Source: a virus (Duplodnaviria; Caudoviricetes). From it: DNA of 62,754 bases. Shown piece by piece: positions 35,799 through 57,911 of the stretch. Under the pieces are notes generated by a model, which did not search any database, was not told the DNA's origin, and worked only from the letters and a program-made list of their open reading frames with translations. The position numbers and the translations under genes were made by a program. Location: the IMG/VR virus record IMGVR_UViG_3300020472_000024, positions 1 through 62,754 of that record; one strand, given 5' to 3'. The first letter of the stretch is position 1. Every line of letters starts with the position of its first letter.

Positions 35799-35806
35799 AA
35801 GACTAT

Positions 35807-37957: not shown

Positions 37958-37958
37958 T

Positions 37959-40008: not shown

Positions 40009-40475
40009 TACGTATTGTCCTCTTTAGGCATTGTAAATGTCGTTACGGTTCCGTCTGTTTCTGTAACGGTTACGGTTACATTACCTGTACCTGAAGGTGT
40101 TGCCCAAGTAACTACTTCACCACCTACTGGTGATGTAAATGTACCAGAGTCTTGTTGTAGACCATCAGTACCAAATACGTTATCTGTAATTTGTTTTGCA
40201 AGGGCAGTATAAAATCTTGCCTCTATATTTGACTTAAACTTAGCAATTGCTGTGTTTTTTGCTTCTGTTTCTGCTTTTTCTTTAGCAGCTTTTTCTGCTG
40301 CCTTGATAGCGTCTTTTCTAGTCTTCTCTATATTCTCAATTGTTAGATAGTGTGATGATTTTCCGTTACCAGAAAACGATGGACTACCAAACTTAAAGGT
40401 AAGTTCACTACCTTTTACTGATTGGATTGATAAAACTACTAAAATTGTTGCTAATGCTAGTGATAATTTTCCCAT
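40008..40475 (-). CDS. csgF: curli assembly component CsgF
   Basis: Signal peptide then SELTFKFGSPSFSGNG (CsgF N-terminal F..P.F.G motif); C-terminal VTETDGTVTTF. Confidence 0.88.
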   Translation of the reverse strand: MGKLSLALATILVVLSIQSVKGSELTFKFGSPSFSGNGKSSHYLTIENIEKTRKDAIKAAEKAAKEKAETEAKNTAIAKFKSNIEARFYTALAKQITDNVFGTDGLQQDSGTFTSPVGGEVVTWATPSGTGNVTVTVTETDGTVTTFTMPKEDNT

Positions 40476-40496
40476 AAATTTCTCTCTTTACAGGTA

Positions 40497-40504
40497 TATT
40501 TATA
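40497..40504 (-). promoter_or_regulatory. T4-type late promoter upstream of csgF
   Basis: TATAAATA 21 nt upstream of the csgF ATG. Confidence 0.75.
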
Positions 40505-40508
40505 AGAT

Positions 40509-40682
40509 TTACTTACTGAATTTGTCTGTTAATTTGTTGATTAGTTCAAAAGCGACTTTAATTTTTTCTTCTAAAACCTTAATTCGGTAATGTGCCTGCG
40601 CTAAGGTGACTATTAGTAATATAAATGCCACAAATATCGGCCATAATCTACTCAACATCAATACTGCGTCTGAAGCTTCCAT
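40509..40682 (-). CDS. small membrane protein (57 aa)
   Basis: Hand-translated MEASDAVLMLSRLWPIFVAFILLIVTLA... Confidence 0.6.
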   Translation of the reverse strand: MEASDAVLMLSRLWPIFVAFILLIVTLAQAHYRIKVLEEKIKVAFELINKLTDKFSK

Positions 40683-40687
40683 AATTA

Positions 40688-41152
40688 TTATTCGTATACT
40701 TTTTTTCTCTCGTATGCCTGCTCGTGTCTACCTGTAATCTCTAGTATTTCCCACTCGCCATTTTCTAATACTCTTACTTTTGCATTTACTTTATCACAAG
40801 TCATATTGTAAACACCGTCTTTAGTTTCACTTTCTTTATATTTTCTTTCTGCCTCTCTTTTATTTTTAAGGCAGTCCATTAAGTTTTCACTTGCAACGTG
40901 GTCAACTAGTTTTCTTTGTCCATCTTCTCCTAGTTCAAAGATACATACTGCAAATACAACACCGTCTTCAGGTGTAGATTCTGAAGTCTTGTGTTCTTCT
41001 TTCATAAAAGTTTTATGTGTATGTTTCTTTTCAATAGGACATACTTGGTGACCGTCATCGCCACAACCTGTGCAATCTGCAAATACAATACTAACACCAC
41101 CTATTAATATAATAAGTGAAAGTAATCCTGCTAATAGTAATCTTCCTTGCAT
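40688..41152 (-). CDS. secreted Cys-rich hypothetical protein
   Basis: Signal peptide; CTGC..HQVC; NLMDCLKNKREAER...TC motif. Confidence 0.7.
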   Translation of the reverse strand: MQGRLLLAGLLSLIILIGGVSIVFADCTGCGDDGHQVCPIEKKHTHKTFMKEEHKTSESTPEDGVVFAVCIFELGEDGQRKLVDHVASENLMDCLKNKREAERKYKESETKDGVYNMTCDKVNAKVRVLENGEWEILEITGRHEQAYERKKVYE

Positions 41153-41457
41153 TAGTTTAATATTTTAAGTAATCTTATTCCGTATTTTGCTTGTTTGTCT
41201 TCTTGTAATAATGCTTTTACTTGTTTACAAGCAAATATAACTCTTTCGCCACCTACTTCTCTACTTGCTACTCTTTTAGATTTTAGGCATTGACTTATAT
41301 TTTCTTTGTAAACCCATTCAATTAATTTTCCGTTAAGTGTTAGTGTCAAAGCAATGACACCATCTTTTTCATACTTTTCACCACCAGTATATAATTTAGC
41401 TGCAAATACGCTAGTTGTAAATAATAATAAAAATAATATACTAGTTAATTTTTTCAT
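41152..41457 (-). CDS. secreted hypothetical protein
   Basis: Signal peptide; NISQCLKSKRVASR...AC motif, paralogous to its neighbour. Confidence 0.7.
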   Translation of the reverse strand: MKKLTSILFLLLFTTSVFAAKLYTGGEKYEKDGVIALTLTLNGKLIEWVYKENISQCLKSKRVASREVGGERVIFACKQVKALLQEDKQAKYGIRLLKILN

Positions 41458-41912
41458 TGTGTTGTTTTCCCATTTTGATATATAATATTTCTATTACTAT
41501 CCTTTAATTTCTCAACATCATCTCTAAGGATTTTTACATCCTCTTGTAATCTTTTGATGTTAACGCCATTGTTCATCATATCTTCCATACTCTTTTGTAT
41601 TGCTTCCACCTGACCAGCAATGTGCTCAATCAACATAAATTGCTCCGAGTCAGCAGGTAGTGATCCCATTTCTCCACGAGGCCACTTAATTCTAAATTCT
41701 GTATTCTTTTCTAAATCAGCACCTATTGTTTCTATTGCCTGATTTAAGTCTTTTTCTGCAAGTGTGCTTTTAGTTTCTAACATTGTTATACGCTCTAGCA
41801 CTCCGAAATATGCCCATACACCAACGGCAACAGCAGCAACTATGGAAATCAAGTTCCTCATAGGCATACTGATAGCAGTATTGTCTGATATATCTAATCT
41901 ATTGTTTGCCAT
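41454..41912 (-). CDS. membrane-anchored coiled-coil protein
   Basis: TM near N-terminus; FRIKWPRGEMGSLPADSEQFML motif. Confidence 0.7.
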   Translation of the reverse strand: MANNRLDISDNTAISMPMRNLISIVAAVAVGVWAYFGVLERITMLETKSTLAEKDLNQAIETIGADLEKNTEFRIKWPRGEMGSLPADSEQFMLIEHIAGQVEAIQKSMEDMMNNGVNIKRLQEDVKILRDDVEKLKDSNRNIIYQNGKTTQ

Positions 41913-42291
41913 TATCTAATTCCTTTTTCTCTGGTTCATAATATTCCTTATATTTATCAAGCAAATCATTCGTTATTTTTAATTGATTACGAATTTGTGC
42001 AAAGTTCTTTGCTAATAGTTCAAAATCTTTATCTGTAAGACCCCATAACACAGGATCAATGCCAGATTCCTCTAGTCTTTTAAACACTTCCTCGGCATTT
42101 TTACTAGTGATAATAATCCACTTTAGATTTTCTAGTTCTAACGCTGTGGGTTTGTTCAGATTGAGTTTTTCTCTCTCAACCTTCTTCTTAAATATCGTTA
42201 GTTCTTTAACACCCGAACAACTAGTAAGGGATGTAATTAGGATTAGCGATACTAGGACACTCCCTATTAATTTCAGACTTTTTTGTAGCAT
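41899..42291 (-). CDS. o-spanin-like lipoprotein
   Basis: Lipobox LTSC; overlaps the 3' end of the i-spanin-like gene. Confidence 0.6.
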   Translation of the reverse strand: MLQKSLKLIGSVLVSLILITSLTSCSGVKELTIFKKKVEREKLNLNKPTALELENLKWIIITSKNAEEVFKRLEESGIDPVLWGLTDKDFELLAKNFAQIRNQLKITNDLLDKYKEYYEPEKKELDNGKQ

Positions 42292-42688
42292 TCTTTTCTT
42301 TTTCAGTTAATTCGGCGCCACTTGCTATTTCAATACATCTTGTTGCTAATGCACTAGCACCGTTTGTTATTCTTTCAATAGATTCTGTTTTAGCAATTGC
42401 AAGTTTACCAACATCTCTATTCTTTTTGTTAAACCTTTTATCTAAATCGTCAAGGTCTTTTTTAAGTACACTTACTAACTCATTCATTTTTTGATTAGCA
42501 GCAAGTATATCTTTGAAATCGTTTTTTTGTTGTGTGATAAGTTCTTGTTGATCTGAAATTGCTTCTTCCATTTTCACAGCATTTGCTTTTAAAATAGCAT
42601 TATCTGATCTCAACTTCATCACATAAACGCCAGCGCCAATTACGGCGCTAGCGAGTATTCCAATAAAAAATAATCTAAATCCTAACAT
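42221..42688 (-). CDS. i-spanin-like protein
   Basis: N-terminal TM, long coiled coil, C-terminal Cys pair. Confidence 0.6.
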   Translation of the reverse strand: MLGFRLFFIGILASAVIGAGVYVMKLRSDNAILKANAVKMEEAISDQQELITQQKNDFKDILAANQKMNELVSVLKKDLDDLDKRFNKKNRDVGKLAIAKTESIERITNGASALATRCIEIASGAELTEKEKNATKKSEINRECPSIANPNYIPY

Positions 42689-45034: not shown

Positions 45035-45292
45035 TCATTTCTTTTTTTTACTCGCCTTTAAATTTACCGTTCCAATAGAATCTAATGGTCTCATTGTAGT
45101 TGGTTCTAGTGAAGTGCTAACTGAATCACCAACACCTGCTGACAAACCTACTCGTCTAGCACTTTTACCACCTTGTCCTTTAGGTGATGTATCAGTACCT
45201 TTTCTACTCAATGCTGCCATCGGTTGTAAACTATCTAATCCACCAACTTTAATAGTTGATATACCTAGATATTCTTTTAAAGATTTAACCAT
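45035..45292 (-). CDS. putative internal head protein
   Basis: N-terminal KSLKEYL, capsid-targeting-like. Confidence 0.55.
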   Translation of the reverse strand: MVKSLKEYLGISTIKVGGLDSLQPMAALSRKGTDTSPKGQGGKSARRVGLSAGVGDSVSTSLEPTTMRPLDSIGTVNLKASKKKK

Positions 45293-45620
45293 TGTATTTG
45301 TCCTTAAATGTTTTGTATTCTTTTTCTTCTTCTACTTTTAATTCTGTTTTACCAAAATGTTTTTCATCTATTGCGTGTTCAATGTTTTCTATCTTTTCAA
45401 TAACACCTCTTAATACTACATTGTTATTGTCATCACTCTCTTTGATTTTTCTTTTGATAGGTTTAGCAAACATCAACGGATCTTTTTTATCTTTTCTAAC
45501 ACCTGGTTCGTGTTTAGGAGGCAATGCAACATTACCACCATCACCAACAGCATTTGCTGGTGCGTCTTCATCAATCTTGTTGATGATTTCATCCATCATT
45601 TCTTTATAATGTTTTGGCAT
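45285..45620 (-). CDS. putative internal head/virion protein
   Basis: IDE/DAPANAVGDG motif; IxE cleavage-like sites. Confidence 0.6.
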   Translation of the reverse strand: MPKHYKEMMDEIINKIDEDAPANAVGDGGNVALPPKHEPGVRKDKKDPLMFAKPIKRKIKESDDNNNVVLRGVIEKIENIEHAIDEKHFGKTELKVEEEKEYKTFKDKYNG

Positions 45621-46089
45621 AGTCAAACTCCGATTTTAATTCTCCATCTTTTTCATATACATCAACACCAAACCAATTACAAACAATTTGATCGTCTGTA
45701 TAAAACTCTGGTATCTCTCTGCTTTCATTTAATATATCTTCATAGAGATTGTTGTCTTTTAAATATGTAATAATAGTTGACTCTATTACATCTTTGTGTT
45801 TTGAATATTCTTTATTCTCTTTTAATAATAAAGCAGCAGCAACAGCAAATGATCCTAACTTACCTTTAATACCTACCTTAGCAAGTATTCTTTTTAAATT
45901 AAAAACAAACCTATGTAGTACCGTATAGGAACGCTTTGCTTCTGTTCCTTTAATCTGTCTATACTTTTGAAGTACCTTACCATCTTTATCAATGATACCA
46001 TACTTAAAAGCAGGTTGTTTTTCAAAAGGTGTTACTAGCATTTTAATAACTCTATATGCAATCAGTAAATCTACTGGTCTATTTGCCAT
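45604..46089 (-). CDS. conserved T4-like hypothetical protein
   Basis: AFKYGIIDKDGK, YTVLHRFVFNLKR. Confidence 0.75.
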   Translation of the reverse strand: MANRPVDLLIAYRVIKMLVTPFEKQPAFKYGIIDKDGKVLQKYRQIKGTEAKRSYTVLHRFVFNLKRILAKVGIKGKLGSFAVAAALLLKENKEYSKHKDVIESTIITYLKDNNLYEDILNESREIPEFYTDDQIVCNWFGVDVYEKDGELKSEFDYAKTL

Positions 46090-46451
46090 TACATTTCCTC
46101 TAATAGTTTCTTAATGTTTTCATCTACTTCAATCTCATTAAGTTCGTGTGGATATAGATAATTCAAGTGTTGTAAAACCGTTTTCAAAATTGGCCAGTAT
46201 TGTTTATCTATTTTGTATAAAAGTAATACACAAGCCGCCTCTACTCCAAAAACATTTTGTAAAACTATAATGTGATTTACAATTAGTCTTACTTTTATTT
46301 CACCTATTAACTTATATCTACGAAATAACCTTTTAAGATATTTGAATCTTTTAATGTCATCATATAATTCCTTATCTTTTTCAAGTGTAGGATTATCATA
46401 ATTCTGCTGTGCATACAGCATCCAATTATCTTTGGTTATCTCTTTGAACAT
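46089..46451 (-). CDS. conserved T4-like hypothetical protein
   Basis: YDNP, DIKRFKYLKRL, RLIVNHII.L.NVFG. Confidence 0.75.
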   Translation of the reverse strand: MFKEITKDNWMLYAQQNYDNPTLEKDKELYDDIKRFKYLKRLFRRYKLIGEIKVRLIVNHIIVLQNVFGVEAACVLLLYKIDKQYWPILKTVLQHLNYLYPHELNEIEVDENIKKLLEEM

Positions 46452-46453
46452 TA

Positions 46454-46897
46454 CTACACTAATTTAGCGTAGACTTTTGATGTTCCGTTTTGTAAAGTTT
46501 CATAAGATACTTCCATCTTTAATCCACCTTCTTTTCTATGAGATATACCATCATCATTTATATCAGAACCATCGGTATCTTTACCAAATCTTCCTCCGAA
46601 TTGAGTCACTTCACAAGAAACTTTACCAGAATCTCCTTGAATATCACAAGGTGATACCGTAAGACCTATTCTTTGTAACTTTTCTCTTAATTCGTCAACT
46701 GCAAATTGAGGTTTCATATATTCCCTTTCGGCAATAGAACCAACAAATGCGTTAACTCTTTTTAAAACATCAGCGTCAGCAATATTATGTACACCTATTG
46801 ATGAATCTTCTACTGAATTTGTAGTTTGTGATCCAACAGCAGCGGCACTTTTATCCGAACCTGAATGTTCGTTTACGTGTTGTTTAAAAGTTTTCAT
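46454..46897 (-). CDS. putative internal head protein
   Basis: MKTFKQHVNE capsid-targeting-like N-terminus; QFGGRFGK. Confidence 0.65.
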   Translation of the reverse strand: MKTFKQHVNEHSGSDKSAAAVGSQTTNSVEDSSIGVHNIADADVLKRVNAFVGSIAEREYMKPQFAVDELREKLQRIGLTVSPCDIQGDSGKVSCEVTQFGGRFGKDTDGSDINDDGISHRKEGGLKMEVSYETLQNGTSKVYAKLV

Positions 46898-47011
46898 TTA
46901 TTTTCCTCTACTTCTTTTTTAACTTCTTTTTTATCCTCAACCTCTTTAGATTGAGTGTCGCCTAAAACATCTTCCTCAAAGTCTTTTAATTCTTCTTCTT
47001 TGATATGTTGT

Positions 47012-47212
47012 TTAAACTTTTTTACCATCTGTTTCTCCCCTACTTAACTTTAAAAGTTTTTCAGTTTGTTGTACAGCACCATAGATTGCGTTTAAGTTAT
47101 TTCTTTGTTTCATAACTTCACCTTCCATAGTTTCTATACCTTTTTTAGTTTTTTCAAAATCAGCTTGCAATACTGCTAATTCTTCTTGCAAAAACTTTTC
47201 ATTAATTGACAT
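47012..47212 (-). CDS. coiled-coil hypothetical protein
   Basis: 66-aa ORF with RBS. Confidence 0.65.
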   Translation of the reverse strand: MSINEKFLQEELAVLQADFEKTKKGIETMEGEVMKQRNNLNAIYGAVQQTEKLLKLSRGETDGKKV

Positions 47213-47230
47213 AATTTAATACTCCTATTA

Positions 47231-47698
47231 TTAACTTACTACTTGGCCATTACCGCCAACTACATTCCACTTACTATCTTTAAACATCATAATTGCACTT
47301 CTACCTGGAGCGTCAATGTTAACTTTTGTACCAGCACCTGCATTGATATTTGTAGGTGTTATAGTAACTGGATTGACACCAGATGTAGAGTTGTTAATTA
47401 TGATTTTGATTTGACCATCTGTACCATCTGCTAAAGTACAAGGACAAGCGCCTGATGAAGCGTTTACCATAGTTGTTGAAGATGTAACCTCAACTTCTAA
47501 AGATGAAGATCCGTCACCTAATATTGTTTGGTGTGTATCTTTTAATCCTAAGTAAGAAGGTATATTATTAAATACATCTTCTGCTGTAACTTTTTTATTG
47601 ATTGGTGTTCCTGATGGATTATCTATTATGTGGAACAAATCCACACTTGCCAATGCGTCACCGAGATCGGTCAACGCCGTTATTTTCTTATCTGCCAT
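47231..47698 (-). CDS. putative virion structural protein
   Basis: [12 protein letters not shown] start; beta-rich [13 protein letters not shown]. Confidence 0.6.
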
Positions 47699-47778
47699 TT
47701 TTATTCTCCTATTAACCCCTTATGGGGAATGCTATTCTAGGCATACACCTAGACCACTTTGTTCATATAGTATATATA

Positions 47779-47796
47779 AGGGCGCCAAAGCGCCCC
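47779..47796 (-). terminator. GC hairpin (possible terminator/processing site)
   Basis: GGGCGC-caaa-GCGCCC just downstream of 47810..48094; weak U-tract. Confidence 0.5.
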
Positions 47797-47809
47797 TATA
47801 ATTATTTTA

Positions 47810-48094
47810 TTATGCGTTAGATGTTAGGCAAACTAAAGTAGTATATTGTACTCTATTTGCTCTGCCACCTGAACCAGTCGTTTTTAGAACCCATCCTGAA
47901 TGAGCAACCTTTCCAGATTGCGTTTCAGAAGCATTGTAGTTAAATAATCCGTGCGTAGCGCCACTTATAAATGTGCCTGCAGAAGCATTTTCGTACAACG
48001 AAGTTCTATTAGCGCTTGAAGGCGCTACGTTCAACATAGTAGCCGCCCATAATGGCGCTCCACCTGCTGATGATGCTGTTGTCCAACTTGACAT
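47810..48094 (-). CDS. putative virion structural protein
   Basis: Own late promoter and RBS; AHSGWV...GGRANRVQYTTLV motif. Confidence 0.6.
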   Translation of the reverse strand: MSSWTTASSAGGAPLWAATMLNVAPSSANRTSLYENASAGTFISGATHGLFNYNASETQSGKVAHSGWVLKTTGSGGRANRVQYTTLVCLTSNA

Positions 48095-48149
48095 AGTATT
48101 CTCTCCCTTGTTAAATTGTTAAGGTACTCAATTTGTTAGTATATGATAC

Positions 48150-48157
48150 TATTTATA
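48150..48157 (-). promoter_or_regulatory. T4-type late promoter
   Basis: TATAAATA, intergenic. Confidence 0.75.
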
Positions 48158-48167
48158 AGGAAAGATA

Positions 48168-48656
48168 CTAGAAACCTAGTTTTTTGAGTTGTCTAATAGT
48201 GTTTGCGTAAGATGTATGATGTATACCAATTCCACCTCTAGCAGTGAATTGATTAGTGTTTTTAGGGTAATCGTCTATTAATATTGCAGGTTGTCCACCT
48301 GATTTTGCGTATAGTTGTTTCTGTGATCTCTTAACTAGATTGACTCTACCAGCAGAAAGACCTAATTTAGTTCTTGCCCAATGTGATTTTCCAGGTATAC
48401 AATTAGGATCAAAAGTTTGTTCTACATATGCTGATAATATGTGAGGTTGAAACTTTGATATGTAAGACCATAGTTGTCTTCCACCTGCCTGCCAAGGTAA
48501 AGTGTGCCAAAATTTTGGGGTGTCTTTGATTGGTTGCCACTTTTCAGACTTACTAGCATACTGCCATTTAGATATAGGCATACCAGTTACCTTTTCAGCA
48601 GCAGTTTTAAAATCACAAAGAACACCATCCATATCACAATAGATACGAGGTTTCAT
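48168..48656 (-). CDS. HAD-family 5'(3')-nucleotidase/phosphatase
   Basis: IYCDMDGVLCDF, ILS, K..W, LIDD. Confidence 0.88.
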   Translation of the reverse strand: MKPRIYCDMDGVLCDFKTAAEKVTGMPISKWQYASKSEKWQPIKDTPKFWHTLPWQAGGRQLWSYISKFQPHILSAYVEQTFDPNCIPGKSHWARTKLGLSAGRVNLVKRSQKQLYAKSGGQPAILIDDYPKNTNQFTARGGIGIHHTSYANTIRQLKKLGF

Positions 48657-48660
48657 AGTT

Positions 48661-50067
48661 TTAGTATTTGTAATCTACTCTTGGATTCATTTCAGGTGAA
48701 GTTGCAACTTGACCTGTCATTGTTTTTTTCTTTGAATCTCTAGTGTCTGTGTCTGCTTCTTGTTCTTTCTTTTTATTAGACTCTCCGTCAGGTGAGTTTT
48801 TAGGACCTTTACCTTCTTTGATTTCAGCAGCCATCATTGCAAAAGTTTTCCATTCATTCTTTGGTGTTTTAATTATTTCTTTTTCTCCACCAGCACTTTT
48901 TTGATGTCTATTTGCTTTTGCTGTTTGACCCATATGAGTTTCTTTTACTTCTTGTTTTTTCTTATCTTCTTTATCTTTAAGAAGTTTATGAGCAACACCA
49001 ATAGTTAATGGAACCTCACCTGTTTCTTTATTAGGTTCTGGTTTCACAACTTTGTTTTTTTCGTTTTCAATCTTTTGTTTTAATAAATTGATTTGACCTT
49101 GAGCAACTACTAATTGTTTTTCTAATGCGTCTGCGTCTTTAGGTGTTTCTTTAGCAGGTGTTGAATTAGGTTCTACTTCAGATTTTTTTTTCTTAATATC
49201 TTCTGCCATTTGTGCAAAAGTTTTTGTATTAAAAAATCCTTCTTTAACTTCTTCTTTTTTAGGTACACAATTTGGTACTTCTTTACCATCTTTCTTTTTC
49301 ATACCTATCATTTCATAATTTTTCCAACAAGGGTCTTTATCTTCTTTCATTGATGGATCAAAATGTGATAATCTAAAACCATATGGTTTAGATATACGAG
49401 CAGTTGTTTTTTCTGCACCTTCTATTTCAACATCTTCTAAACTTCCGCCACCACCTGGTCCGATTTGTCTTTTTGCTCTTGCCTTGTCTAATTCTTTCAT
49501 TGCCTTATCTTCAGCATCCTTTTCACTATTTGCATTAACAACTACTTCAAAACCATCAGCACCACCGATACCTTTATAACCCATAGTACCTGATACCAAC
49601 CATCTTGCTTCTTCTAAATCTTCTTTAACTTCTTTTTTCTTCATTGCCATCACAGATCCGTATTCTTTTTTCATTGATCTTAATTTAGCAAGGTCTTTGC
49701 CATCAATATCTCCATCTTTATCTTTATCTAATTTCTTTTGACCTCCTACTAAATTTTCTTTCACTTCTTTTTCTTCTTGTTTCTTTTCTTTTGGAATTTT
49801 GCCATCTTTATCTGGCACACAATTAGGTACTTGTCTTCCACCTTTGTCTTTCATACCAACCTTTTTGTATCCTTTCCAACACGCCTCATCAACTTTTGCG
49901 TAAAATTCTTTCTTCTCAGCACCAGTCATATGACCTATAGGTTTGCCTGCCATTTCTAATTGTTTTTTAAAGTTATCTTGGTAGTCAGATTCTAAAACTT
50001 TATTCTGTAAGTTTTTTACCGTATCTTCAATACTACCTTCTTTAGTTTTTAAATATTTTTCTCCCAT
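48661..50067 (-). CDS. putative internal head polyprotein with repeated modules
   Basis: Two CWKxY..xGMK.K.G.xVPNCVP repeats, DKDKDGDIDGKDL EF-hand-like loop, many VKE sites. Confidence 0.65.
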   Translation of the reverse strand: MGEKYLKTKEGSIEDTVKNLQNKVLESDYQDNFKKQLEMAGKPIGHMTGAEKKEFYAKVDEACWKGYKKVGMKDKGGRQVPNCVPDKDGKIPKEKKQEEKEVKENLVGGQKKLDKDKDGDIDGKDLAKLRSMKKEYGSVMAMKKKEVKEDLEEARWLVSGTMGYKGIGGADGFEVVVNANSEKDAEDKAMKELDKARAKRQIGPGGGGSLEDVEIEGAEKTTARISKPYGFRLSHFDPSMKEDKDPCWKNYEMIGMKKKDGKEVPNCVPKKEEVKEGFFNTKTFAQMAEDIKKKKSEVEPNSTPAKETPKDADALEKQLVVAQGQINLLKQKIENEKNKVVKPEPNKETGEVPLTIGVAHKLLKDKEDKKKQEVKETHMGQTAKANRHQKSAGGEKEIIKTPKNEWKTFAMMAAEIKEGKGPKNSPDGESNKKKEQEADTDTRDSKKKTMTGQVATSPEMNPRVDYKY

Positions 50068-51230
50068 TATGGTCTCCTTAATCCTTTATGAAATTTATCT
50101 TTTGCTCTTTTAATTTTTCTATCTAAAACTTTTAGTTTTAGTTTGTCTGAAACCTCTCTATATATTCTTTCAAAGGTTGCCTTACCTGGATGTATATAAG
50201 TTTCATTAGCAGTTTTTAATGCTCTTGCAATAGTAGATACTTTAGATAAATCTTTAGCAATCTTTTCTATTTCTCTTACTGCCTTACTATACATTCCATC
50301 ACTCTTTACAGCAATTTTCATTGCCTTAGCAACTTTATCAGGACCGTATTGAATAGGGTCTGACTCTACTACACTTTTTGGTCTTATTCTTATTTCGTTA
50401 ACAGGTGATGTATTTCTACCCATTTTGTTTATTTTAAAACCTTTTTTTCTTAAATTAGCTGCCTTATTTTGTAAGTCTGCTAAAGTTTCTGCGTCTTCAA
50501 AACCAGCGTGTTTGCCATATCTATCATCATAAGATAGTCTAAATGCCGATTTCTTTTCTTCAAGTTCTTTTCCTTTTGCAGGATCTTTTTCTGCAACTCT
50601 ATATCCAAATCTATATTTTGGTTTTCTACTCTTAGCAAAACTACCTTGTTTTGATGATGTATTAGCACCACCTCTTTCAGAAATATTTTCTTCTTCTTTA
50701 ACTACTTTAACATCTTTAGTACCTTTCATATCACCAGTTTTGTACCACTTAATAAATTTTTCTGCCTCTTGTGAAGTTTTATATTTTCCGTGTATTACTT
50801 TTCCGCCATCTTTTTTTGTAATCTGTACTTTAAATGATTCTCTTACAGGCATACCTTTTTTTACCATACGAGATAATGCTAAACCAGATAAGAAAGGTAT
50901 ATGTTTCTTTCTTAAATCATTTAAAAATGCGTCAGGTATTCTATCAAATATTTTTCTTAATTTGTTTGCCTGATCTATTGAAATTGTTTTACCTTTTAGG
51001 TCTGAATATTGTTTTGATAAAGTATCTAATTGTGACCTTGAAAATTCTTGTAGTTCAACTTCTTCACCTAAAATTTTCTTAACCGTACTTAATGGTAACT
51101 TTAATGCCTTAGCAATTTCTTTAGCAGATTGTCCTTCTTGGTCAGCAGTAAAAATATCTTTCATTCTACCTTCATCTATTTCAAAGTTGAATTGTGCAAC
51201 TTCATCCATTAATGATCTAATATGTTTCAT
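50067..51230 (-). CDS. putative internal head polyprotein with HTH
   Basis: SAKEIAKALKLPLSTVKKIL HTH; modules separated by xxE sites. Confidence 0.6.
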   Translation of the reverse strand: MKHIRSLMDEVAQFNFEIDEGRMKDIFTADQEGQSAKEIAKALKLPLSTVKKILGEEVELQEFSRSQLDTLSKQYSDLKGKTISIDQANKLRKIFDRIPDAFLNDLRKKHIPFLSGLALSRMVKKGMPVRESFKVQITKKDGGKVIHGKYKTSQEAEKFIKWYKTGDMKGTKDVKVVKEEENISERGGANTSSKQGSFAKSRKPKYRFGYRVAEKDPAKGKELEEKKSAFRLSYDDRYGKHAGFEDAETLADLQNKAANLRKKGFKINKMGRNTSPVNEIRIRPKSVVESDPIQYGPDKVAKAMKIAVKSDGMYSKAVREIEKIAKDLSKVSTIARALKTANETYIHPGKATFERIYREVSDKLKLKVLDRKIKRAKDKFHKGLRRP

Positions 51231-51239
51231 AGTTCTTCC

Positions 51240-51551
51240 TTATAGTGCCGAATAAATTTCGTCCCAATTTTTTACTTTTCTTTTTAAATCTGTCATCATC
51301 ATTTTTTCAAGTCTTTGTCTGATAGTAATAGCATCGTTTCCAATAACTCTAGCATAATTATTATGTACTGCTTCTAAACCTGAATATGCGTCTGCTAATT
51401 TTTTATCTCTTAAAATTTCAGCAGCAATATATCTTCTACTTTCAAAGTGATCGTTCTTTGCTGTCTTTGCTCTAATATATTGTAAATTAGTTTTAGACGC
51501 TTCTGTCGCTTCTAATAAATTTTCTCTTACTTCTTTTAATGTTCTTTTCAT
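51240..51551 (-). CDS. putative internal head protein
   Basis: MKRTLKEVRENLLE start. Confidence 0.6.
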   Translation of the reverse strand: MKRTLKEVRENLLEATEASKTNLQYIRAKTAKNDHFESRRYIAAEILRDKKLADAYSGLEAVHNNYARVIGNDAITIRQRLEKMMMTDLKRKVKNWDEIYSAL

Positions 51552-51635
51552 CTTCTTTTTCTTCTTTATCAAACTGCTCGGAGTTTGGTGTGTTGTTTGC
51601 TAGATCATCTAAAAACTTATCAAGTTCTTTATCCA

Positions 51636-53720
51636 TTATAAATTCTTTATCATTTTAGATACGACTTCAGATAACTTTTTCTGCCATTCTTCCTTGTATC
51701 TTTCCTTATATTTATCTATTGTTTCACTTGTAGTTGACCAATCATTTATATCTTTTACAGAAATGTCTGTACTTATTGGTCTTTCTACTACTTTTTCTCC
51801 AGAAGTATTATCTACTGCTGGTTTATATGATCCACCCTCATAATTTGGGTCATATCCGTCTTGTCCTGGGGTTACTTTTATTGTATGTTGAGCATAATCG
51901 TGCCCAATATCGTATGATTCTTTTACTTTATCAGATTCTTCTTCTCTTTTTTCTGATACGGCTTCAAAACCATAATCTATGTCTAAATTGTATTCTCTCA
52001 CTTGTGCCTCTCTATCGGCAGATATAGGTAAACAATCCCATATCCACGCCTTGTGTAAATTATTGTTGTTGTCTTCTAGTACAATATAATTTGTACCTTT
52101 TCTAATCACTTTTCCATTTATATTTTCTTTTATGTGATTAACTTTATCCCCTATATTAAAAATCATTTCTCTTATATAAAGGTCTCTTATTTGATTCTGT
52201 TCAAACTCTTGTAAAGATTTAATTGACTTGTAGTTAGTATCGTATTCCATACTTGCTACTAATCTCATTCCTTTTCTTACATCTTTAAATAAATCATCTG
52301 CGTTTCTGTATCCTGTAGGTACACCTTTTTTAAATGTATCGTAATCATCTTTACTAGCGGCATCCCTCATCTTACTTGCTGACATACCTGATACACCTTC
52401 TGCGTCTGGATCTCTTTCGCCTGCTGATAACACATTTATGTTATCAAAATTATAATGTCCGTGCCTACTTTTAACATCATTATATTTGTTTAGTATTGTT
52501 TCAAATTCTCTTACTCTATCTGAACCAACTACCATAAAAATTTCAGTATATCCTTGTCTGTATAGTTTACTTGCAATATCTAAAACCATATTTGTTGAAT
52601 TGATTTCAATGTTTCTACTATACTTAGGAAACATAAATTTCATATGTGCTAATTTTGTTCTAGGAGATAATGGATTCTTTCTAGGATCATTACTTCTACT
52701 TAAAAATATTTTAAATGTATCTGCTCTAACACTTGCAACTTTCTTAATTAGTTTTTCGTGTCCAGATGTAGGTGGATTAAATCTACCAAAAGTAAATGCA
52801 ATTGTTTTTCTTCTTCTAACTGCTTCTGATTTTAAACTATCTATCTCACTATCTGTTACAACACCATCATCTAATATTTTTTTACATTTTTTATAGAAAG
52901 TTATGTAGTGATACTTCTCTAACATTTTATAGATAACTGCTTTAGGTAATCTATTCTTAATACCGTACTTTCTAATTTCTTCAGGCGACATATCACTATC
53001 AAACGCTGCTCTTCTTTCAGCGTCTACCTTATCACCTACTTTAATTATTAATTCTATATCGTATTCTATTTCCTCTAGTTTATCTTTAACCTTATCTTGT
53101 AAATCTAAAACATCATTTGGAGTTAAACTTTGTAGTTCTTTGTAATCTATTATATCTCTTTTTAGTTCACCTTTAATTACATCTAACTCTTGTACTTTTC
53201 TTTCAAAATCTCTAACATATACAGAAGGATCAAATTTAAAATCTTCAGGTCGTTTAATAAATTTATTTTTACCTATATCAAATACTGCGTCTGCCTTTTT
53301 ATTTTGATCGTCATAAGTTTCTTTATCTGTAATAAAATAATAGTTAATAGGATGTTTTGTACCAGGTATTAATTTACCTTGTATGTTATCAGGATTTTTA
53401 GCAGATAAAAACTTTTGTGATAGTCTTAATCTTTCTTCTTCTTGTTTTTCTTTAGGTACATCAAATAAAACATTGATGTCTAGGTCAGCGTCATTTCTAT
53501 ATCTTCTAGTTAAGATAGAACCTATTAAAGAATAATCTAATATATCATATTCTTTTTTAAACTCCGTAAATTGTTTCATTATCATACCAATAATTTCAGG
53601 TTTGATTTTAGGGTCTTTAGATTCTGGATTAGAGAATACACCTGGAGCATATGTTTGTCTAGGTATGTCTATGACTGCCTCTTTTATTGGTATTGTTTTT
53701 ATGTATTCTTTAAATCTCAT
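51636..53720 (-). CDS. fusion: Pol-beta-like nucleotidyltransferase + HIGH-superfamily cytidylyltransferase-like domain
   Basis: LIGSILT....DADLDINV (GS..DxD); TFGRFNPPTSGHEKL, VVGSDRV, SAGERDPDAEGVSGMSASKMR. Confidence 0.85.
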   Translation of the reverse strand: MRFKEYIKTIPIKEAVIDIPRQTYAPGVFSNPESKDPKIKPEIIGMIMKQFTEFKKEYDILDYSLIGSILTRRYRNDADLDINVLFDVPKEKQEEERLRLSQKFLSAKNPDNIQGKLIPGTKHPINYYFITDKETYDDQNKKADAVFDIGKNKFIKRPEDFKFDPSVYVRDFERKVQELDVIKGELKRDIIDYKELQSLTPNDVLDLQDKVKDKLEEIEYDIELIIKVGDKVDAERRAAFDSDMSPEEIRKYGIKNRLPKAVIYKMLEKYHYITFYKKCKKILDDGVVTDSEIDSLKSEAVRRRKTIAFTFGRFNPPTSGHEKLIKKVASVRADTFKIFLSRSNDPRKNPLSPRTKLAHMKFMFPKYSRNIEINSTNMVLDIASKLYRQGYTEIFMVVGSDRVREFETILNKYNDVKSRHGHYNFDNINVLSAGERDPDAEGVSGMSASKMRDAASKDDYDTFKKGVPTGYRNADDLFKDVRKGMRLVASMEYDTNYKSIKSLQEFEQNQIRDLYIREMIFNIGDKVNHIKENINGKVIRKGTNYIVLEDNNNNLHKAWIWDCLPISADREAQVREYNLDIDYGFEAVSEKREEESDKVKESYDIGHDYAQHTIKVTPGQDGYDPNYEGGSYKPAVDNTSGEKVVERPISTDISVKDINDWSTTSETIDKYKERYKEEWQKKLSEVVSKMIKNL

Positions 53721-54412
53721 TTTCTTTTCTTTAATTCTAGTTCTCTTTTAATCCACGCCATCGCTGTACGATTTTCTGGTTTAGTTCTCATTCTACTTCT
53801 AATAAATTTTGAAGCAGTAGATAGAGTTTTTGTAACTAATTCTTTTTCATCTCTACTATTATCTACAATTAACATTTTAGAAGGACCAAATACTCTTTGA
53901 AACGCACCCATATTTAATTGTACTTTTTGCCAACTTTTCTTTGTAATATATTCTGGTATACTTCTTTCTCTACTTTTATTTCTTTGCAATGCAACGTCTA
54001 AACTTGTATTGACAAATACCATATAACAATCATATCCTATATGTTTTAACATATTAACTTGACTAGATATAACTCCATAATCTCTTCCTGTACTATCAAC
54101 AATTACACCTAATCTTCCTTTAAGATAAGAATCTAATTGTTTTCCAGCAAATTGTTTTGCACCTTTTCTAATCATATCTCTAAAGTATGCTTCTTCATCT
54201 GGCATTTTCATAGACATACCTGCTTTTCTTAAATCTTTTTCAAACTTAACATCTGAATTAACAAGTTTTAAACCTGTGCCAGCAAAAGCACTAGCAGTTA
54301 CAAATGATTTTCCTGAACCAGGACCACCTGCTAAAAAGAATGCTTTAAATATACCAGGATCATAAACACCTTCATTGATATATTGTCTTACTGAATCTAA
54401 TGTCTTCTTCAT
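53717..54412 (-). CDS. P-loop kinase (zeta-toxin/Pnk-like, AAA_33)
   Basis: FLAGGPGSGKS, VNSD, IVDSTG, VALQRNKSRER. Confidence 0.85.
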   Translation of the reverse strand: MKKTLDSVRQYINEGVYDPGIFKAFFLAGGPGSGKSFVTASAFAGTGLKLVNSDVKFEKDLRKAGMSMKMPDEEAYFRDMIRKGAKQFAGKQLDSYLKGRLGVIVDSTGRDYGVISSQVNMLKHIGYDCYMVFVNTSLDVALQRNKSRERSIPEYITKKSWQKVQLNMGAFQRVFGPSKMLIVDNSRDEKELVTKTLSTASKFIRSRMRTKPENRTAMAWIKRELELKKRK

Positions 54413-54972
54413 TTTGTTTTATCCATAATAGTCTGTGCTATTGCTTCTTTAGAATTACCTTCTGCTTTAATTTTTATTAACTCGTCTTTATAATAATCTA
54501 AAAGTGGTGCTGTTTCTTTTTCAAATACTTTCAATCTAGTTTTTATAATCTCTGGTTTATCGTCTGCTCTACCTCTAGCAGTTAATCTTTTAATTACTTC
54601 TTCTTCCGATACATCAAGGTAAACAACATAATCATATTCAATACCTTTTTCTTCCATTGCTTTTGCCTGTTCAATGTTTCTAGGAAAACCGTCAAAGATA
54701 TAACCTTTTTGTGCGTCTGGTTTTTCTAATCTATCTAATACAGCATTAATAACAATATCAGTAGGTGCAAATTTACCTTTTGCTAATAAATCTTTTACTT
54801 GATCGTTAGTCTTTGCTAACTTTCTCATCATATCACCAGTATATATGTGTGGTATGTTAAGTTTCTTTGTTATAATTTCCGAGTAAGTAGATTTACCTGA
54901 TCCAGGTCCACCAATCATAATGATTCTTTTTCTACCTAATGCCTCAAATATATAATCTTTAAAACTTTTCAC
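54409..54972 (-). CDS. adk: adenylate kinase (short-lid type)
   Basis: GGPGSGKST, TGDMMR, YIFDGFPRNIEQA, RGRADD, RL.VF..ET.PL. Confidence 0.92.
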   Translation of the reverse strand: MKSFKDYIFEALGRKRIIMIGGPGSGKSTYSEIITKKLNIPHIYTGDMMRKLAKTNDQVKDLLAKGKFAPTDIVINAVLDRLEKPDAQKGYIFDGFPRNIEQAKAMEEKGIEYDYVVYLDVSEEEVIKRLTARGRADDKPEIIKTRLKVFEKETAPLLDYYKDELIKIKAEGNSKEAIAQTIMDKTK

Positions 54973-55259
54973 TAATCCTCAACATCACTTCCTGATCGCC
55001 ATTGATAACAACTCCAGTATCTTGCTTTCCATTTAGGTCCTGGGTTATCACAATTATGTCTTGCTCTAAATGACGCTCTCCTCTCATCACTATCTCTTTT
55101 AATTTCCATATTAGGATCGCCAAAAGTTACCTTAACTACATTGCCTGATCCATTCTTAACATAAACACCAAACTTTTTTGAATTGCCTGAAGGCAATCTG
55201 AAAGGTTTGTTTAATTTCTTATTTTCTTTTTCTTCTATAAATTGTTTTAATGATTTCAT
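54972..55259 (-). CDS. small basic conserved phage protein (DUF6321-like)
   Basis: KKFGVYV, VTFGDP, RRASFRARH.C, ARYWSC. Confidence 0.75.
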   Translation of the reverse strand: MKSLKQFIEEKENKKLNKPFRLPSGNSKKFGVYVKNGSGNVVKVTFGDPNMEIKRDSDERRASFRARHNCDNPGPKWKARYWSCYQWRSGSDVED

Positions 55260-55263
55260 TTTT

Positions 55264-56484
55264 TTATCCTTTTACCCAATCTTTGGCGATAGTAAAGTTT
55301 GCTCTACTAAACTCTAATCTATCTACCAGTTTAACTGCACCTGCTTTTTTATCTACTGCAACAAATCCTTCTGGATTAGTTACTCTATAACCATTAGGTG
55401 TTCTAATAAAATGTCCTATTGATTGTATCTGCGATAATTTTTGTATTAAAAAATTCTTTGCATTTCCTAAACTTACGTGTGAAGCAATAGCAAAATACAA
55501 AGCATTTCTATTTCTATCTATAAATTTTAAATTTGTTTCTAATGCTTCTTTATATTTTTGTTTACCTTTTTCAGTTTTTCTAGCACTAATTTCTGTTCTT
55601 AAAATTTGTTCATAATATTCTCTAAACATATCTTGTAAAGTTTTAACCTTACCCATATGTCCTTGTGTGTTTCTAATGTAATGATTGAAAAATGATTTTA
55701 GTCTAAACCCTACTGATAAAGGATCGTTTGATTTCATTTGATTTAATAATGGACCTGCCTTAATTAAAGACCCTTGTGCCATTCTTATTAGTCCATCAAA
55801 CCTAGATAATTCTCCAGAAGTAAATGTAGATGATCCAGATGTATCAGTATAACCTGCACTTGCTAAATAAACTGCCGTTGATCCTGAAGTACCTCGTATT
55901 GTTCCAAACCCAGCAGATAAACTATCCATAGTTTTACCTGAATAGAAAGTATGAAATACAATTCCTATTCTTGCTCTGGATATTCTTCTACCTAACTTTG
56001 AAGAAGTTGGTACTGCATATGTTATAGTGTTAGGTGTAAAAGTTATCATCTTTTCACCATCTATACTTGCCATTTTCAAATCACTTTTTGTGAATAACAA
56101 ATCACCTTGATAGACACCTCTTATGCCTAATCTTTTTAAATCTCTTAAACACGCCATTAATTTCATTGCAACAGGACCAGAGTGATTTCTGCTTATGTCG
56201 CCAGGTGTGTAATTTATTTTAGGTGTTTTGTTGAAGACTGATTTTGTACCGACAAAGAATTTGCCGTTCTCAGGATTTGTGCCACAGATTATGGCAGGAG
56301 CGCCGTCCCATTTAACAGACATATTAACTCGTCCGCTAGCAGAACCAGCCAGCATATTTCTTACTGACTTTAAAAAATTTATTGCATTCTCTCCACCTTT
56401 TGAACCACGATTTATTATATCGTCTTCTAGGTGTTCTAGGTGCGTATTCTTTTCTGTGGTAATGAAACCTTTAAAACTAAACAT
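55264..56484 (-). CDS. ATP-dependent polynucleotide (RNA) ligase-like protein (DUF6267-like)
   Basis: KWDG (motif I), YQGDLLF (III), PEGFV (IV), VKLVDR (V). Confidence 0.65.
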   Translation of the reverse strand: MFSFKGFITTEKNTHLEHLEDDIINRGSKGGENAINFLKSVRNMLAGSASGRVNMSVKWDGAPAIICGTNPENGKFFVGTKSVFNKTPKINYTPGDISRNHSGPVAMKLMACLRDLKRLGIRGVYQGDLLFTKSDLKMASIDGEKMITFTPNTITYAVPTSSKLGRRISRARIGIVFHTFYSGKTMDSLSAGFGTIRGTSGSTAVYLASAGYTDTSGSSTFTSGELSRFDGLIRMAQGSLIKAGPLLNQMKSNDPLSVGFRLKSFFNHYIRNTQGHMGKVKTLQDMFREYYEQILRTEISARKTEKGKQKYKEALETNLKFIDRNRNALYFAIASHVSLGNAKNFLIQKLSQIQSIGHFIRTPNGYRVTNPEGFVAVDKKAGAVKLVDRLEFSRANFTIAKDWVKG

Positions 56485-56543: not shown

Positions 56544-56551
56544 TATTTATA
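56544..56551 (-). promoter_or_regulatory. T4-type late promoter heading the ligase-kinase-NTase block
   Basis: TATAAATA about 60 nt upstream of the ATG at 56484. Confidence 0.7.
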
Positions 56552-57911
56552 CTATTTTTAGTCCAGATGTAGTTATAAACAAAGACTTGCCTTTCCAACC
56601 ACCTGCTGCTCTAGTTCTACAAGTTACTGGCATTTTAACACTAAAACTCTTGTATTTAAAAAACAATTTAAAAGATTGACCTTTATTGTCATAATCAAAA
56701 TTAATATTTTTTAATTCACTAGATTTTTTAACTGATAATATGTTCTTTAAATCACTATCAGCAGATACATCTTTCATAATACTCGGTCCTTGTTCTTTAC
56801 CTATTAATAATTTGTAAGGACAAGGTGTACTTTTAACTCTAGGATCCTCGTAAGTATAAAAGAAAATTGTATTTAAAAAGTACATTAAGTTATCTGGTTT
56901 CTTTAAAAAGTTACCTAGATTTTTTATTACATTGTTTCTAAAAGGATAATAAAAACCTTCAGCATAAAAATCTAATTTTTGTGATCTGAATATAGTAGCA
57001 AGTTCACCAAAACTTTTTGCTGAAGCACTTTCACTATACTTTTCTTTTCTAATATCAAAATTTTTTAATGCACCTAATATTAATTTTTTATCTTTAGGTA
57101 TTTCTTTTTCTGCTTGATCCCAAGCAGTATCTATCATAGTACAAACATTTTTTAATTGTTTTGTATCTTCTAACTTACCAAAGTAGGCATACATATTTGT
57201 ATTAAATTTTGGCGTTTCATCTTTACCTTCTGAAATTTTATTTGAGTATCCTTGATAGTCTCCTTTTTTAAGTTCAACAACTACATCTGATGGATTTTTA
57301 TCTGATACTCCTGGTGGTTTACCTCTAGGACACCAATATACTTTGTAAGGTTTTTTACCACCTATATCTTTATTAATAGCAATAGCATTATTAAATCCTA
57401 TTTTAATATCTCTTTCAGCAGTTTCATCTTTATCTATTAGTTCAGCAAGTTGTTCATAAGATACTTCATCTACTCCACCACTACTTGGATTTAAAACACC
57501 TGTACCTTTTCTACCAAATTTAGAAACATCACTTTCTAGTTTGTTTGAATAAGTGTTAGGACTATACTTGTTGATTAGAAAAAATACAGAAAGAATTTCG
57601 TTTACATTGGAAGAAGCAGTCGTATCTTTACGACCTTTCATACCATAATGACCTGTAATATCTGATTTTCTTATTGTGATAAAATATTTTAAATCTGTTT
57701 GTTTATTAAAGACTTGAAATATAAATTTGCCATTTGTGGTTAATAATAGTGTGCCTCTTCCATTATCAACATTTTTGTAAAGTAATTCGGTAATACCTTT
57801 TACTTTTCTATCTTTTAATAATTTGCTTACCTTTTGATCTACTGCTTTTTGTAAAGTGTAGTAAGGATTTAAAACATTTTTCTGTTTATAATAGGGCGAT
57901 ACGGTTACCAT
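56547..57911 (-). CDS. large hypothetical protein, possible PD-(D/E)XK-type nuclease
   Basis: NVNE...PSDVVV.....GYSNK pattern. Confidence 0.5.
   Translation of the reverse strand: MVTVSPYYKQKNVLNPYYTLQKAVDQKVSKLLKDRKVKGITELLYKNVDNGRGTLLLTTNGKFIFQVFNKQTDLKYFITIRKSDITGHYGMKGRKDTTASSNVNEILSVFFLINKYSPNTYSNKLESDVSKFGRKGTGVLNPSSGGVDEVSYEQLAELIDKDETAERDIKIGFNNAIAINKDIGGKKPYKVYWCPRGKPPGVSDKNPSDVVVELKKGDYQGYSNKISEGKDETPKFNTNMYAYFGKLEDTKQLKNVCTMIDTAWDQAEKEIPKDKKLILGALKNFDIRKEKYSESASAKSFGELATIFRSQKLDFYAEGFYYPFRNNVIKNLGNFLKKPDNLMYFLNTIFFYTYEDPRVKSTPCPYKLLIGKEQGPSIMKDVSADSDLKNILSVKKSSELKNINFDYDNKGQSFKLFFKYKSFSVKMPVTCRTRAAGGWKGKSLFITTSGLKIV

Follow-up and report, generated by a model that had tools for sequence, protein, structure and literature searches.

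Why should enzymes of unrelated folds and a set of small proteins, encoded together in one viral genome, all begin with a similar peptide of about ten residues? This question is raised by a block of minus-strand genes at positions 45035-56484 of a 62,754-base DNA from a tailed phage. The DNA is the whole of IMG/VR record IMGVR_UViG_3300020472_000024 (hereafter the window), which is about 40% complete. The window has a guanine-cytosine (GC) content of 29-34% along its length and is coded mostly on the minus strand (18,172 residues versus 1,072 on the other, in open reading frames (ORFs) of at least 100 residues). It contains replication and nucleotide-metabolism genes of T4-like phages: the high-coordinate end has the gp41 helicase and a fragment of UvsX, and ribonucleotide reductase lies at 29-32 kb. 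The closest named relative is Pelagibacter phage HTVC008M, whose DUF6267 protein is 50.9% identical to that of the window, and cyanomyophages come next; the source is a marine T4-like phage of SAR11-type bacteria. The block sits between gp41 and the primase/ribonucleotide reductase side. Syntenic regions are gp127-gp143 of HTVC008M and, in P-HM2 and S-PM2, the interval from gp41 to gp61; megablast of the block against named phages gave no match. Our analysis favors, with moderate confidence, the reading that the shared N-terminal peptide is a T4-type capsid targeting leader that is removed by the prohead protease.

The peptide is specific to the block. A preliminary description of this DNA quoted eight N-termini, and each was found at a minus-strand gene start within 45035-56484. 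Beyond that list we identified a ninth tag, MVKKFKQHIKEE, at the start 47028, plus degenerate versions at 45620 (MPKHYKEMMDE) and 51230 (MKHIRSLMDE). The tag consensus is M-K-(S/T)-(F/L)-K-x-(Y/F/H)-(I/V/L)-x-E. The whole window was scanned with a strict regular expression, ^M.{0,4}[FL]K.[FYH][ILV], applied to the 934 candidate starts followed by at least 40 codons. Nine starts matched. Seven of these are true gene starts, all inside the block, and the remaining two (13545 and 12159) lie within longer ORFs; among the roughly 85 genes located elsewhere in the window, no start matched. When each tag was left out in turn from a seven-column matrix, seven of the nine ranked in the top 3 of 926 starts and the DUF6267 tag ranked 6th. 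Finding nine tagged genes in one run of 19 among about 104 corresponds to a rough p of 3e-6.

The carriers are of unrelated folds (adenylate kinase, a P-loop kinase, a DUF6267 protein and a 694-residue protein), together with five small proteins that belong to no family. The DUF6267 protein (55264..56484, 406 residues, Pfam PF19782, E 2e-120) starts with MFSFKGFITTE. The adenylate kinase gene adk (54409..54972, 187 residues) starts with a GTG codon in the window and with ATG in relatives. Its product carries the tag MKSFKDYIFE, followed by ALGR and then the fold, which matches PF00406 at 138.3 bits against a cut-off of 26.8 (E 2.9e-40). NCBIfam adenylate kinase models align residues 15-182 with profile positions 2-178 and score below their equivalog cut-offs (e.g. 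160.4 versus 262). The sequence thus identifies a member of the adenylate kinase family, an assignment at the family level and not one of exact specificity. The P-loop kinase (53717..54412, 231 residues, start 54412) carries the tag MKKTLDSVRQYINE. It is AAA_33/zeta-toxin-like and comes nearest to L-seryl-tRNA(Sec) kinase. The preliminary description had the catalytic fold of these two enzymes starting just after the tag's Glu, and the profile matches agree: adenylate kinase models align residue 15-16 with profile position 2, and P-loop models begin at residues 24-27 of the kinase.

The 694-residue protein (51636..53720, start 53720) carries the tag MRFKEYIKTIPIKE and matches phrog_395 (E 5.7e-68). 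Its score of 23.4 bits with CTP_transf_like, PF01467, the HxGH nucleotidyltransferase family, exceeds the cut-off of 21. With the nadR NMN adenylyltransferase model it reaches 22.7 bits, far under that model's cut-off of 341, so we use the label NMNAT-like, which does not imply established NMNAT activity. Its N-terminal domain is a weak candidate for a Pol-beta-type nucleotidyltransferase. This rests solely on sub-threshold Pfam hits (NTP_transf_2, 19.2 bits), because phmmer with residues 1-300 against PDB sequences gave nothing better than E 0.13. The tagged small proteins are a 95-residue basic protein (54972..55259, phrog_7595, MKSLKQFIEE), a 103-residue basic protein (51240..51551, MKRTLKEVRENLLE), a 44-residue acidic protein (46894..47028, MVKKFKQHIKE), a 147-residue protein (46454..46897, MKTFKQHVNE) and an 85-residue basic protein (45035..45292, MVKSLKEYL, with no Glu at position 10). 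The C-terminal end of the 95-residue protein is a Cys-containing basic stretch. The start of MKRTLKEVRENLLE, at 51551, is an ATG within a longer ORF that opens with TTG, and relatives back this start. A 47-residue ORF (51493-51636, minus strand) between the 694- and 103-residue genes overlaps the upstream frame of the latter as extended to the TTG. The mature forms of the tagged proteins are mostly basic, with isoelectric points (pI) of 9-10.

The layout of the tag corresponds to that of the T4 capsid targeting peptide. T4 ipII and ipIII start with MKTYQEFIAE, and ipI starts with MKTFKEFTS...ITE. According to a T4 head review (PMC9026906), IPIII needs no more than its first 10 residues to be encapsidated, residues 4 and 7 act in targeting and residues 8 and 10 in processing, and Asp at position 10 blocks processing while leaving targeting intact. 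In the window tags and 109 distinct tags from relatives, the conserved positions are the same four: 4 (F/L), 7 (Y/F/H/V), 8 (I/V/L) and 10 (E). The leader ends in [IL]xE in six of the nine window tags and in VxE in one. The likeness to the T4 peptide stated in the preliminary description therefore holds at both the targeting and the processing positions. What we take to be the cleavage points of T4 gp23 and gp24 read LTE|A and LRE|S, respectively; in the aligned region, the capsid protein has FLGE in HTVC008M and ILTE in S-SM1.

A matrix trained on the window and applied to 3,030 T4 starts ranked gene 61.1 first and ipI second. As a finder across lineages this matrix was set aside: it misses the cytidylyltransferase of S-SM1, because Lys5 is specific to the lineage of the window. 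A more general T4-type pattern, ^M.{1,3}[FYL]..[FYH][ILV].E, was used instead. It matches 4 of the 3,030 T4 starts, those of ipII, ipIII, 61.1 and uvsW.1. Gene 61.1 (NC_000866, 18966-19130, minus strand; L102:2467-2631) encodes a hypothetical protein of 54 residues that starts with MKTFKEFIKE. Genes 41 and 61 flank it, and in marine relatives the tagged block occupies this same interval. Homology of gp61.1 with the 111-residue protein of the window or HTVC008M gp143 was not established (E 6.6/0.26), and a literature search for gp61.1 returned nothing relevant. The other start, at 114210 of NC_000866 (plus strand), opens a 76-residue ORF that begins MLLEFKQFLYE and that is presumably uvsW.1. 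This match is either a false positive or another unrecognized tagged protein. We know of no report that uvsW.1 or gene 61.1 encodes a head protein.

Conservation in relatives was analyzed in 80 IMG/VR loci retrieved with the 694-residue protein (60-93% identity). Tag-scoring starts number 221 of 9,083 on the coding strand and 4 of 3,053 on the other, and 220 of the 221 fall in the same ten families. The length of the leader varies and its boundaries are kept. In the nucleotidyltransferase it ranges from 5 to 20 residues (e.g. MRLLE, MKTFKE) and always adjoins E|[AS][VI]IDIPR. In the kinase it always ends in [LI]xE, directly before G(V/L)YDP. The adk tag is kept and ends in E ahead of A(L/I)(G/N), and the small tagged families likewise combine a variable leader length with both ends kept. 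One relative, the 86.7-kb contig G001, carries the tagged block and a Peptidase_S77 prohead protease together; Peptidase_S77 is also present in HTVC008M, S-SM1 and T4. The best tag scores in G001 fall within the block, except for one tag-like RimK-type protein elsewhere. This ATP-grasp protein (462 residues, L105:7979-9367, minus strand) starts with MQVPKFKDYLTE, and no homologue of it was found in the window, HTVC008M, S-SM1 or T4.

The DUF6267 family shows that the tag is an optional module. We sampled the best 150 of 2,798 representative clusters, each at most 50% identical to the others. The general pattern is present at residue 1 in 46 of the 150 and a looser form in 20, and 84 have neither. 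Many of these 84 begin at the fold itself, with M(A/S)KNTHLEH. Internal Met positions match the pattern in only 3 of 1,296 cases. In an alignment of 99 sequences, the majority consensus opens with MxxFxxxLxE. A family in which some members carry the tag and others start at the fold fits the preliminary proposal that enzymes gained a tag. The proposal's further point, that these were ordinary metabolic enzymes, fits less well: what carries the tag looks more like a linked set of a kinase, a ligase-like protein and a nucleotidyltransferase than like ordinary metabolism.

The ligase-like character of DUF6267 is suggested by structure prediction. An AF2 model built from the 99 diverse sequences has a predicted local distance difference test score (pLDDT) of 92.5 and a predicted template modeling score (pTM) of 0.89, and residues 1-10 are the sole stretch under pLDDT 50. 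It replaced a first model from 25 close relatives, which was poor (pLDDT 67) and whose searches were swamped by helical bundles. When the model was compared with 48,161 chains in a VIA structural search, RNA or DNA ligases took all of the first 13 places, with Z scores of 7.6-5.9. They include trypanosome REL1 (Z 7.6, 192 residues aligned), the Naegleria RNA ligase NgrRnl (7.1), Trl1 (6.8), T4 Rnl1 (6.6), T4 Rnl2 (6.3) and DNA ligases (5.9). Across the 99 sequences, with a mean column identity of 36%, K58, D60, G373 and K385 are invariant, and G61, E372, D388 and R389 are conserved in at least 90%. The family thus holds K58-x-D60-G61 (KxDG), E372-G373 and K385, which we take to be ligase motifs I, IV and V. 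No PDB entry reached E <= 0.001 in Foldseek searches with either model, phmmer against PDB sequences was empty for DUF6267, and an ESM Atlas search returned DUF6267 clusters only. Since all Z scores are below 8 and Foldseek was empty, we call DUF6267 ligase-like and not a proven ligase; the model is that of an RNA-ligase-like nucleotidyltransferase with a helical insert.

Natural fusions link DUF6267 to its neighbors. It is joined to a cytidylyltransferase-like domain in both orders, and phrog_455 covers DUF6267 plus the transferase. P0045 is a kinase-DUF6267 fusion, and the metagenomic protein P0043 joins a tag, the domain of the 95-residue protein and DUF6267. A further metagenomic protein, P0140, fuses DUF6267, cytidylyltransferase-like, RimK-type ATP-grasp and Zn-protease domains. 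The fused proteins have one tag, at the extreme N-terminus only. The fusions with the kinase and the transferase suggest that the enzymes of the block work together. By analogy, the pairing of a kinase with a ligase-like protein recalls end-healing and sealing. As in T4 Pnkp/Rnl1 and fungal Trl1, a ligase-like adenylyltransferase domain with KxDG is paired with a P-loop kinase, and certain phages have the two fused. Unlike these, DUF6267 escapes sequence searches for ligases, has structural Z scores of only 6-7.6, contains a large helical insert with no OB or other known C-terminal domain, and has a cytidylyltransferase-like enzyme as a partner. To our knowledge T4 Pnkp and Rnl1 are not head proteins.

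Proteomes of cyanophages place orthologous proteins in virions. Purified S-SM1 virions contain 41 proteins (Sullivan 2010, PMC3037559, Table S8). The cytidylyltransferase T4-GC190 has 25 peptide counts in them, compared with 18 for gp20 and 22 for gp22, and five more proteins of the gp41-gp61 block were detected (GC1453, GC1454, GC1455, GC425 and GC426) (PMC3037559). When the whole S-SM1 genome was scanned with the general pattern, 3 of 4,501 starts matched. The sole annotated gene among them is that of the cytidylyltransferase, SSM1_190, which starts with MKKFSAFLNE. SSM1_192 (GC1455) starts with MLSFKELQE and has 7 virion counts (PMC3037559). A start of the form M/V-K-(K/S)-F-x-x-F-(L/I)-x-E is found in 11 of the 16 cyanophage GC190 entries shown in that paper's protein file; the entries without the tag are three short forms beginning at the fold, a mis-started S-PM2 entry and a 90-residue entry. 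Virions of S-SCSM1, S-CBWM1 and one more estuarine phage are also reported to contain NMNAT-like or cytidylyltransferase enzymes (PMC9602691), as are those of S-CREM2, together with the neighboring ORFs 155, 156 and 160 (PMC10665884). One of these two papers also names kinases in virion proteomes.

Expression data from a relative indicate that the block is late. The orthologues in P-HM2, its genes 161-165 and 168-171, are classed as Late, and the flanking gp43, uvsX, gp41, mazG, gp61 and nrdAB as Mid (PMC5082946, S2 Table). For the phage of the window, late expression and virion presence of the orthologous nucleotidyltransferase would follow by analogy with these papers on relatives. The window itself contains a T4-type late-promoter-like octamer, TATAAATA, at 56544..56551 (minus strand), 60 nucleotides upstream of the DUF6267 start. 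After it the next copy occurs only at 48157 (48150..48157, minus strand), 56 nucleotides upstream of the gene for a 94-residue protein. The window has ten copies, none of them off the coding strand, and seven of the nine that can be evaluated lie at most 80 nucleotides upstream of a gene start, compared with 12% of positions.

Other explanations of the shared peptide differ in how well they account for these results. Chance, or an N-terminal compositional bias in a genome of 31% GC, would be helped by the frequency of Lys, Phe, Ile and Tyr in AT-rich proteomes. We consider it extremely improbable, given the lack of matching gene starts outside the block, the strand imbalance of tags in relatives and the rarity of the pattern at internal Met positions. 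A likeness held in RNA or DNA, with the peptide as its by-product, is also highly unlikely. The signal could be a translation-initiation or repressor site, for instance for RegA, which relatives encode, or a recombination joint, and an AT-rich genome favors AAA, TTT and ATT codons near starts. However, synonymous codons vary among the tags (Ser AGT/TCA/TCT, Ile ATT/ATA/ATC, Glu GAA/GAG) and the first 30 nucleotides of the tagged genes have a mean pairwise identity of 45%, so the likeness resides in the peptide and not in the DNA. Purine-rich ribosome sites are the sole feature common to the upstream regions. Leader length shifts while the hydrophobic and Glu positions stay, and the residue pattern recurs in the 46 diverse DUF6267 proteins and in higher-GC cyanophages.

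A less remote alternative, which we still judge unlikely, is that the peptide is a portable N-terminal module serving some other purpose, with no part in capsid loading. The module might assemble a cytoplasmic enzyme complex, act as an amphipathic localization helix or serve as a removable inhibitory propeptide. The kinase-DUF6267 and nucleotidyltransferase-DUF6267 fusions favor it, as linked enzymes make a shared assembly signal conceivable. So does the presence of untagged proteins of the same block in S-SM1 virions, and so does the match of the T4 pattern to uvsW.1. Against it stand the identity of layout with the T4 peptide at targeting (4, 7) and processing (8, 10) positions and the finding that the one annotated S-SM1 start matching the pattern belongs to a virion protein. 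Late expression of the P-HM2 orthologues, together with head genes, also argues against another job, as does the single tag of the fused proteins.

Some observations count against a capsid targeting leader. Within the window, the kinase tag is a weak member of the set, ranking 17th in the leave-one-out test. Two of the nine tags lack (I/L)xE, those of DUF6267 (ITTE) and the 85-residue protein (no Glu). High pI is common in this AT-rich genome, and the untagged deoxyribonucleotidase of the block has a pI of 9.9. Neither Peptidase_S77 nor the head module is found on this roughly 40%-complete record. As an enriched motif, TATAAATA was rejected, with 10 copies seen versus 17.3 expected from shuffled sequence; its strand and its position before genes alone are informative. 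The leaders of HTVC008M are more degenerate, and no annotated start there matches either the strict window expression or the general pattern. T4 61.1 and uvsW.1 match the T4-type pattern, so a motif match is not proof of head loading.

The virion data add further points on the same side. All the detections come from cyanophages. Four S-SM1 virion proteins of the block (188, 191, 195 and 197) have no tag, which indicates that the tag is not the sole route into the particle. Virions of Syn9 and S-PM2 gave no detection of the cytidylyltransferase (PMC3037559, Table S8), and the Syn9 copy carries the tag. The Syn9 and S-PM2 data sets also missed several known structural proteins (PMC3037559). The authors of the S-CREM2 study note that abundant proteins may co-purify with virions (PMC10665884). 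The preliminary description had read the region as a cargo locus, and this claim stands in part. The tagging of unrelated folds, the late orthologues and the virion orthologue in S-SM1 support it; the block itself is mixed, with about 9-11 of its 18-19 genes tagged.

The reading of the tag as a capsid leader draws on sequence logic, on the proteomes and transcriptomes of relatives, and on the behavior of the tag as an optional N-terminal module. If it is right, the genes of the block would be transcribed late from the TATAAATA-type promoter before DUF6267. The leader would dock each protein onto the scaffolding core during prohead building. Cutting by a gp21-type prohead protease would follow, at the (I/L/V)-x-E that ends around residue 10-14. 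The mature products, basic for the most part, would remain inside the head and later pass into the host along with the DNA. The cargo would consist of the linked enzymes (the ligase-like DUF6267 protein, the polynucleotide-kinase-like kinase, the NMNAT-like nucleotidyltransferase and adenylate kinase) and the small proteins. We consider it probable that the virus particle carries the tagged enzymes and injects them together with its DNA; we infer docking, cleavage, injection and a role of the enzymes in the host.

The proposed system resembles several known ones in part. T4 IPI, IPII and IPIII open, at the very N-terminus, with a peptide some 10 residues long (Mullaney and Black 1996, via PMC9026906). 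The T4 layout is M-K-T-(Y/F)-x-E-F-I-x-E and that of the window M-K-(S/T)-(F/L)-K-x-(Y/F)-I-x-E. The leader ends in (I/L)xE in T4 and in most tags of the window. The phage of the window is T4-like with a gp21-type protease in relatives, and several mature tagged proteins are small and basic. The T4 tag is on three small non-enzymatic proteins, whereas that of the window is on recognizable enzymes and marks 9-11 genes of a single, probably late block in the gp41-gp61 interval. Lys5 and leaders of up to 14-20 residues further distinguish the lineage of the window. The virion enzymes of S-SM1, S-SCSM1 and S-CREM2 include the orthologous nucleotidyltransferase in the same gene neighborhood, and the authors of these studies already propose virion carriage and host delivery of NMNAT-like enzymes. 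The available text of these papers names no loading signal, which the T4-type leader proposed here would supply. Compared with cyanophages, the pelagimyophage lineage spreads the leader to many more proteins. The ejection or inner-body proteins of the giant phages SPN3US and phiKZ are similar in that many are packaged in the head, trimmed by a head protease and ejected. They differ in having other propeptides and belonging to another lineage, and no short portable 10-residue tag is described in the available accounts of them.

A literature search found no paper linking a capsid targeting sequence to cyanophage or pelagiphage enzymes among the matches listed, with subscription and unindexed literature outside the search, and no paper reporting adenylate kinase in a phage virion proteome. 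In the available text of the T4 review, cyanophage appears a single time, in the reference list (PMC9026906). The accessible part of a pelagimyophage survey lists adk as an auxiliary metabolic gene and mentions no leader (PMC7029224).

The remaining genes of the block, all on the minus strand, have degenerate tags or none. A 387-residue Lys-rich protein with an N-terminal helix-turn-helix-like stretch (50067..51230) carries MKHIRSLMDE and is outside the nine. A 111-residue protein (45285..45620) carries MPKHYKEMMDE, which is replaced by MKRFKEVAED in one relative. The 468-residue Lys/Glu-rich protein (48661..50067) has a conserved N-terminus that is not a tag, M..KYLKTKEGSIE. It contains two copies of a Cys motif, CW(K/x)(G/N)Y...G(M)K.K.G..VPNCVP, which might be a metal- or nucleic-acid-binding module. 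Untagged genes encode the 5'-3' deoxyribonucleotidase-like protein (48168..48656, phrog_2643, E 3.1e-23), whose fold starts at residue 4, the 94-residue Ala/Ser/Gly-rich protein (47810-48094), a 155-residue protein (47231-47698), a DUF7207 protein (46089-46451) and a phrog_18642 protein (45604-46089). A fiber-like protein and a 66-residue protein are also untagged. The position in S-SM1 that matches the 94- and 155-residue genes holds virion proteins, a match by position only.

Directly upstream of the block lies the gene for an untagged 454-residue protein with a weak match to phrog_2496 (56547-57911, minus strand). A copy of TATAAATA is found 6 nucleotides ahead of its annotated start, suggesting that the true start may be further downstream. 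Elsewhere in the window, the products of genes at 34158-42688 (minus strand) start with signal-peptide- or lipoprotein-like N-termini. This run is consistent with the curli-related cluster described in pelagimyophages (PMC7029224).

A wider reading, which is possible but doubtful at present, is that pelagimyophages and cyanomyophages use the T4 capsid targeting peptide as a general loading code for an injected enzyme kit of DUF6267, kinase, nucleotidyltransferase and adenylate kinase. If true, nucleic-acid end repair and a supply of adenine nucleotides and NAD would be ready before any phage gene is expressed. One use of such a kit would be to counter host nucleases or nucleotide-depleting defenses. 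"Auxiliary metabolic genes" such as adk would become virion cargo. The favored reading of the tag as a capsid leader, if correct, would by itself turn pelagimyophage adk and its neighbors from helpers made during infection into injected proteins. It would also offer a mechanism for the repeated, unexplained finding of nucleotidyltransferases and kinases in purified cyanophage particles. The T4 tag for head loading, which Black's laboratory attached artificially in capsid targeting sequence fusions, would then be found on genuine enzymes in nature. DUF6267, which belongs to the core genes of marine T4-like phages and has 2,798 representative clusters, would gain a testable function as an RNA-ligase-like enzyme acting with the kinase and the nucleotidyltransferase. 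The tag would be a simple sequence rule that could be used to predict the virion cargo of uncultured T4-like phages.

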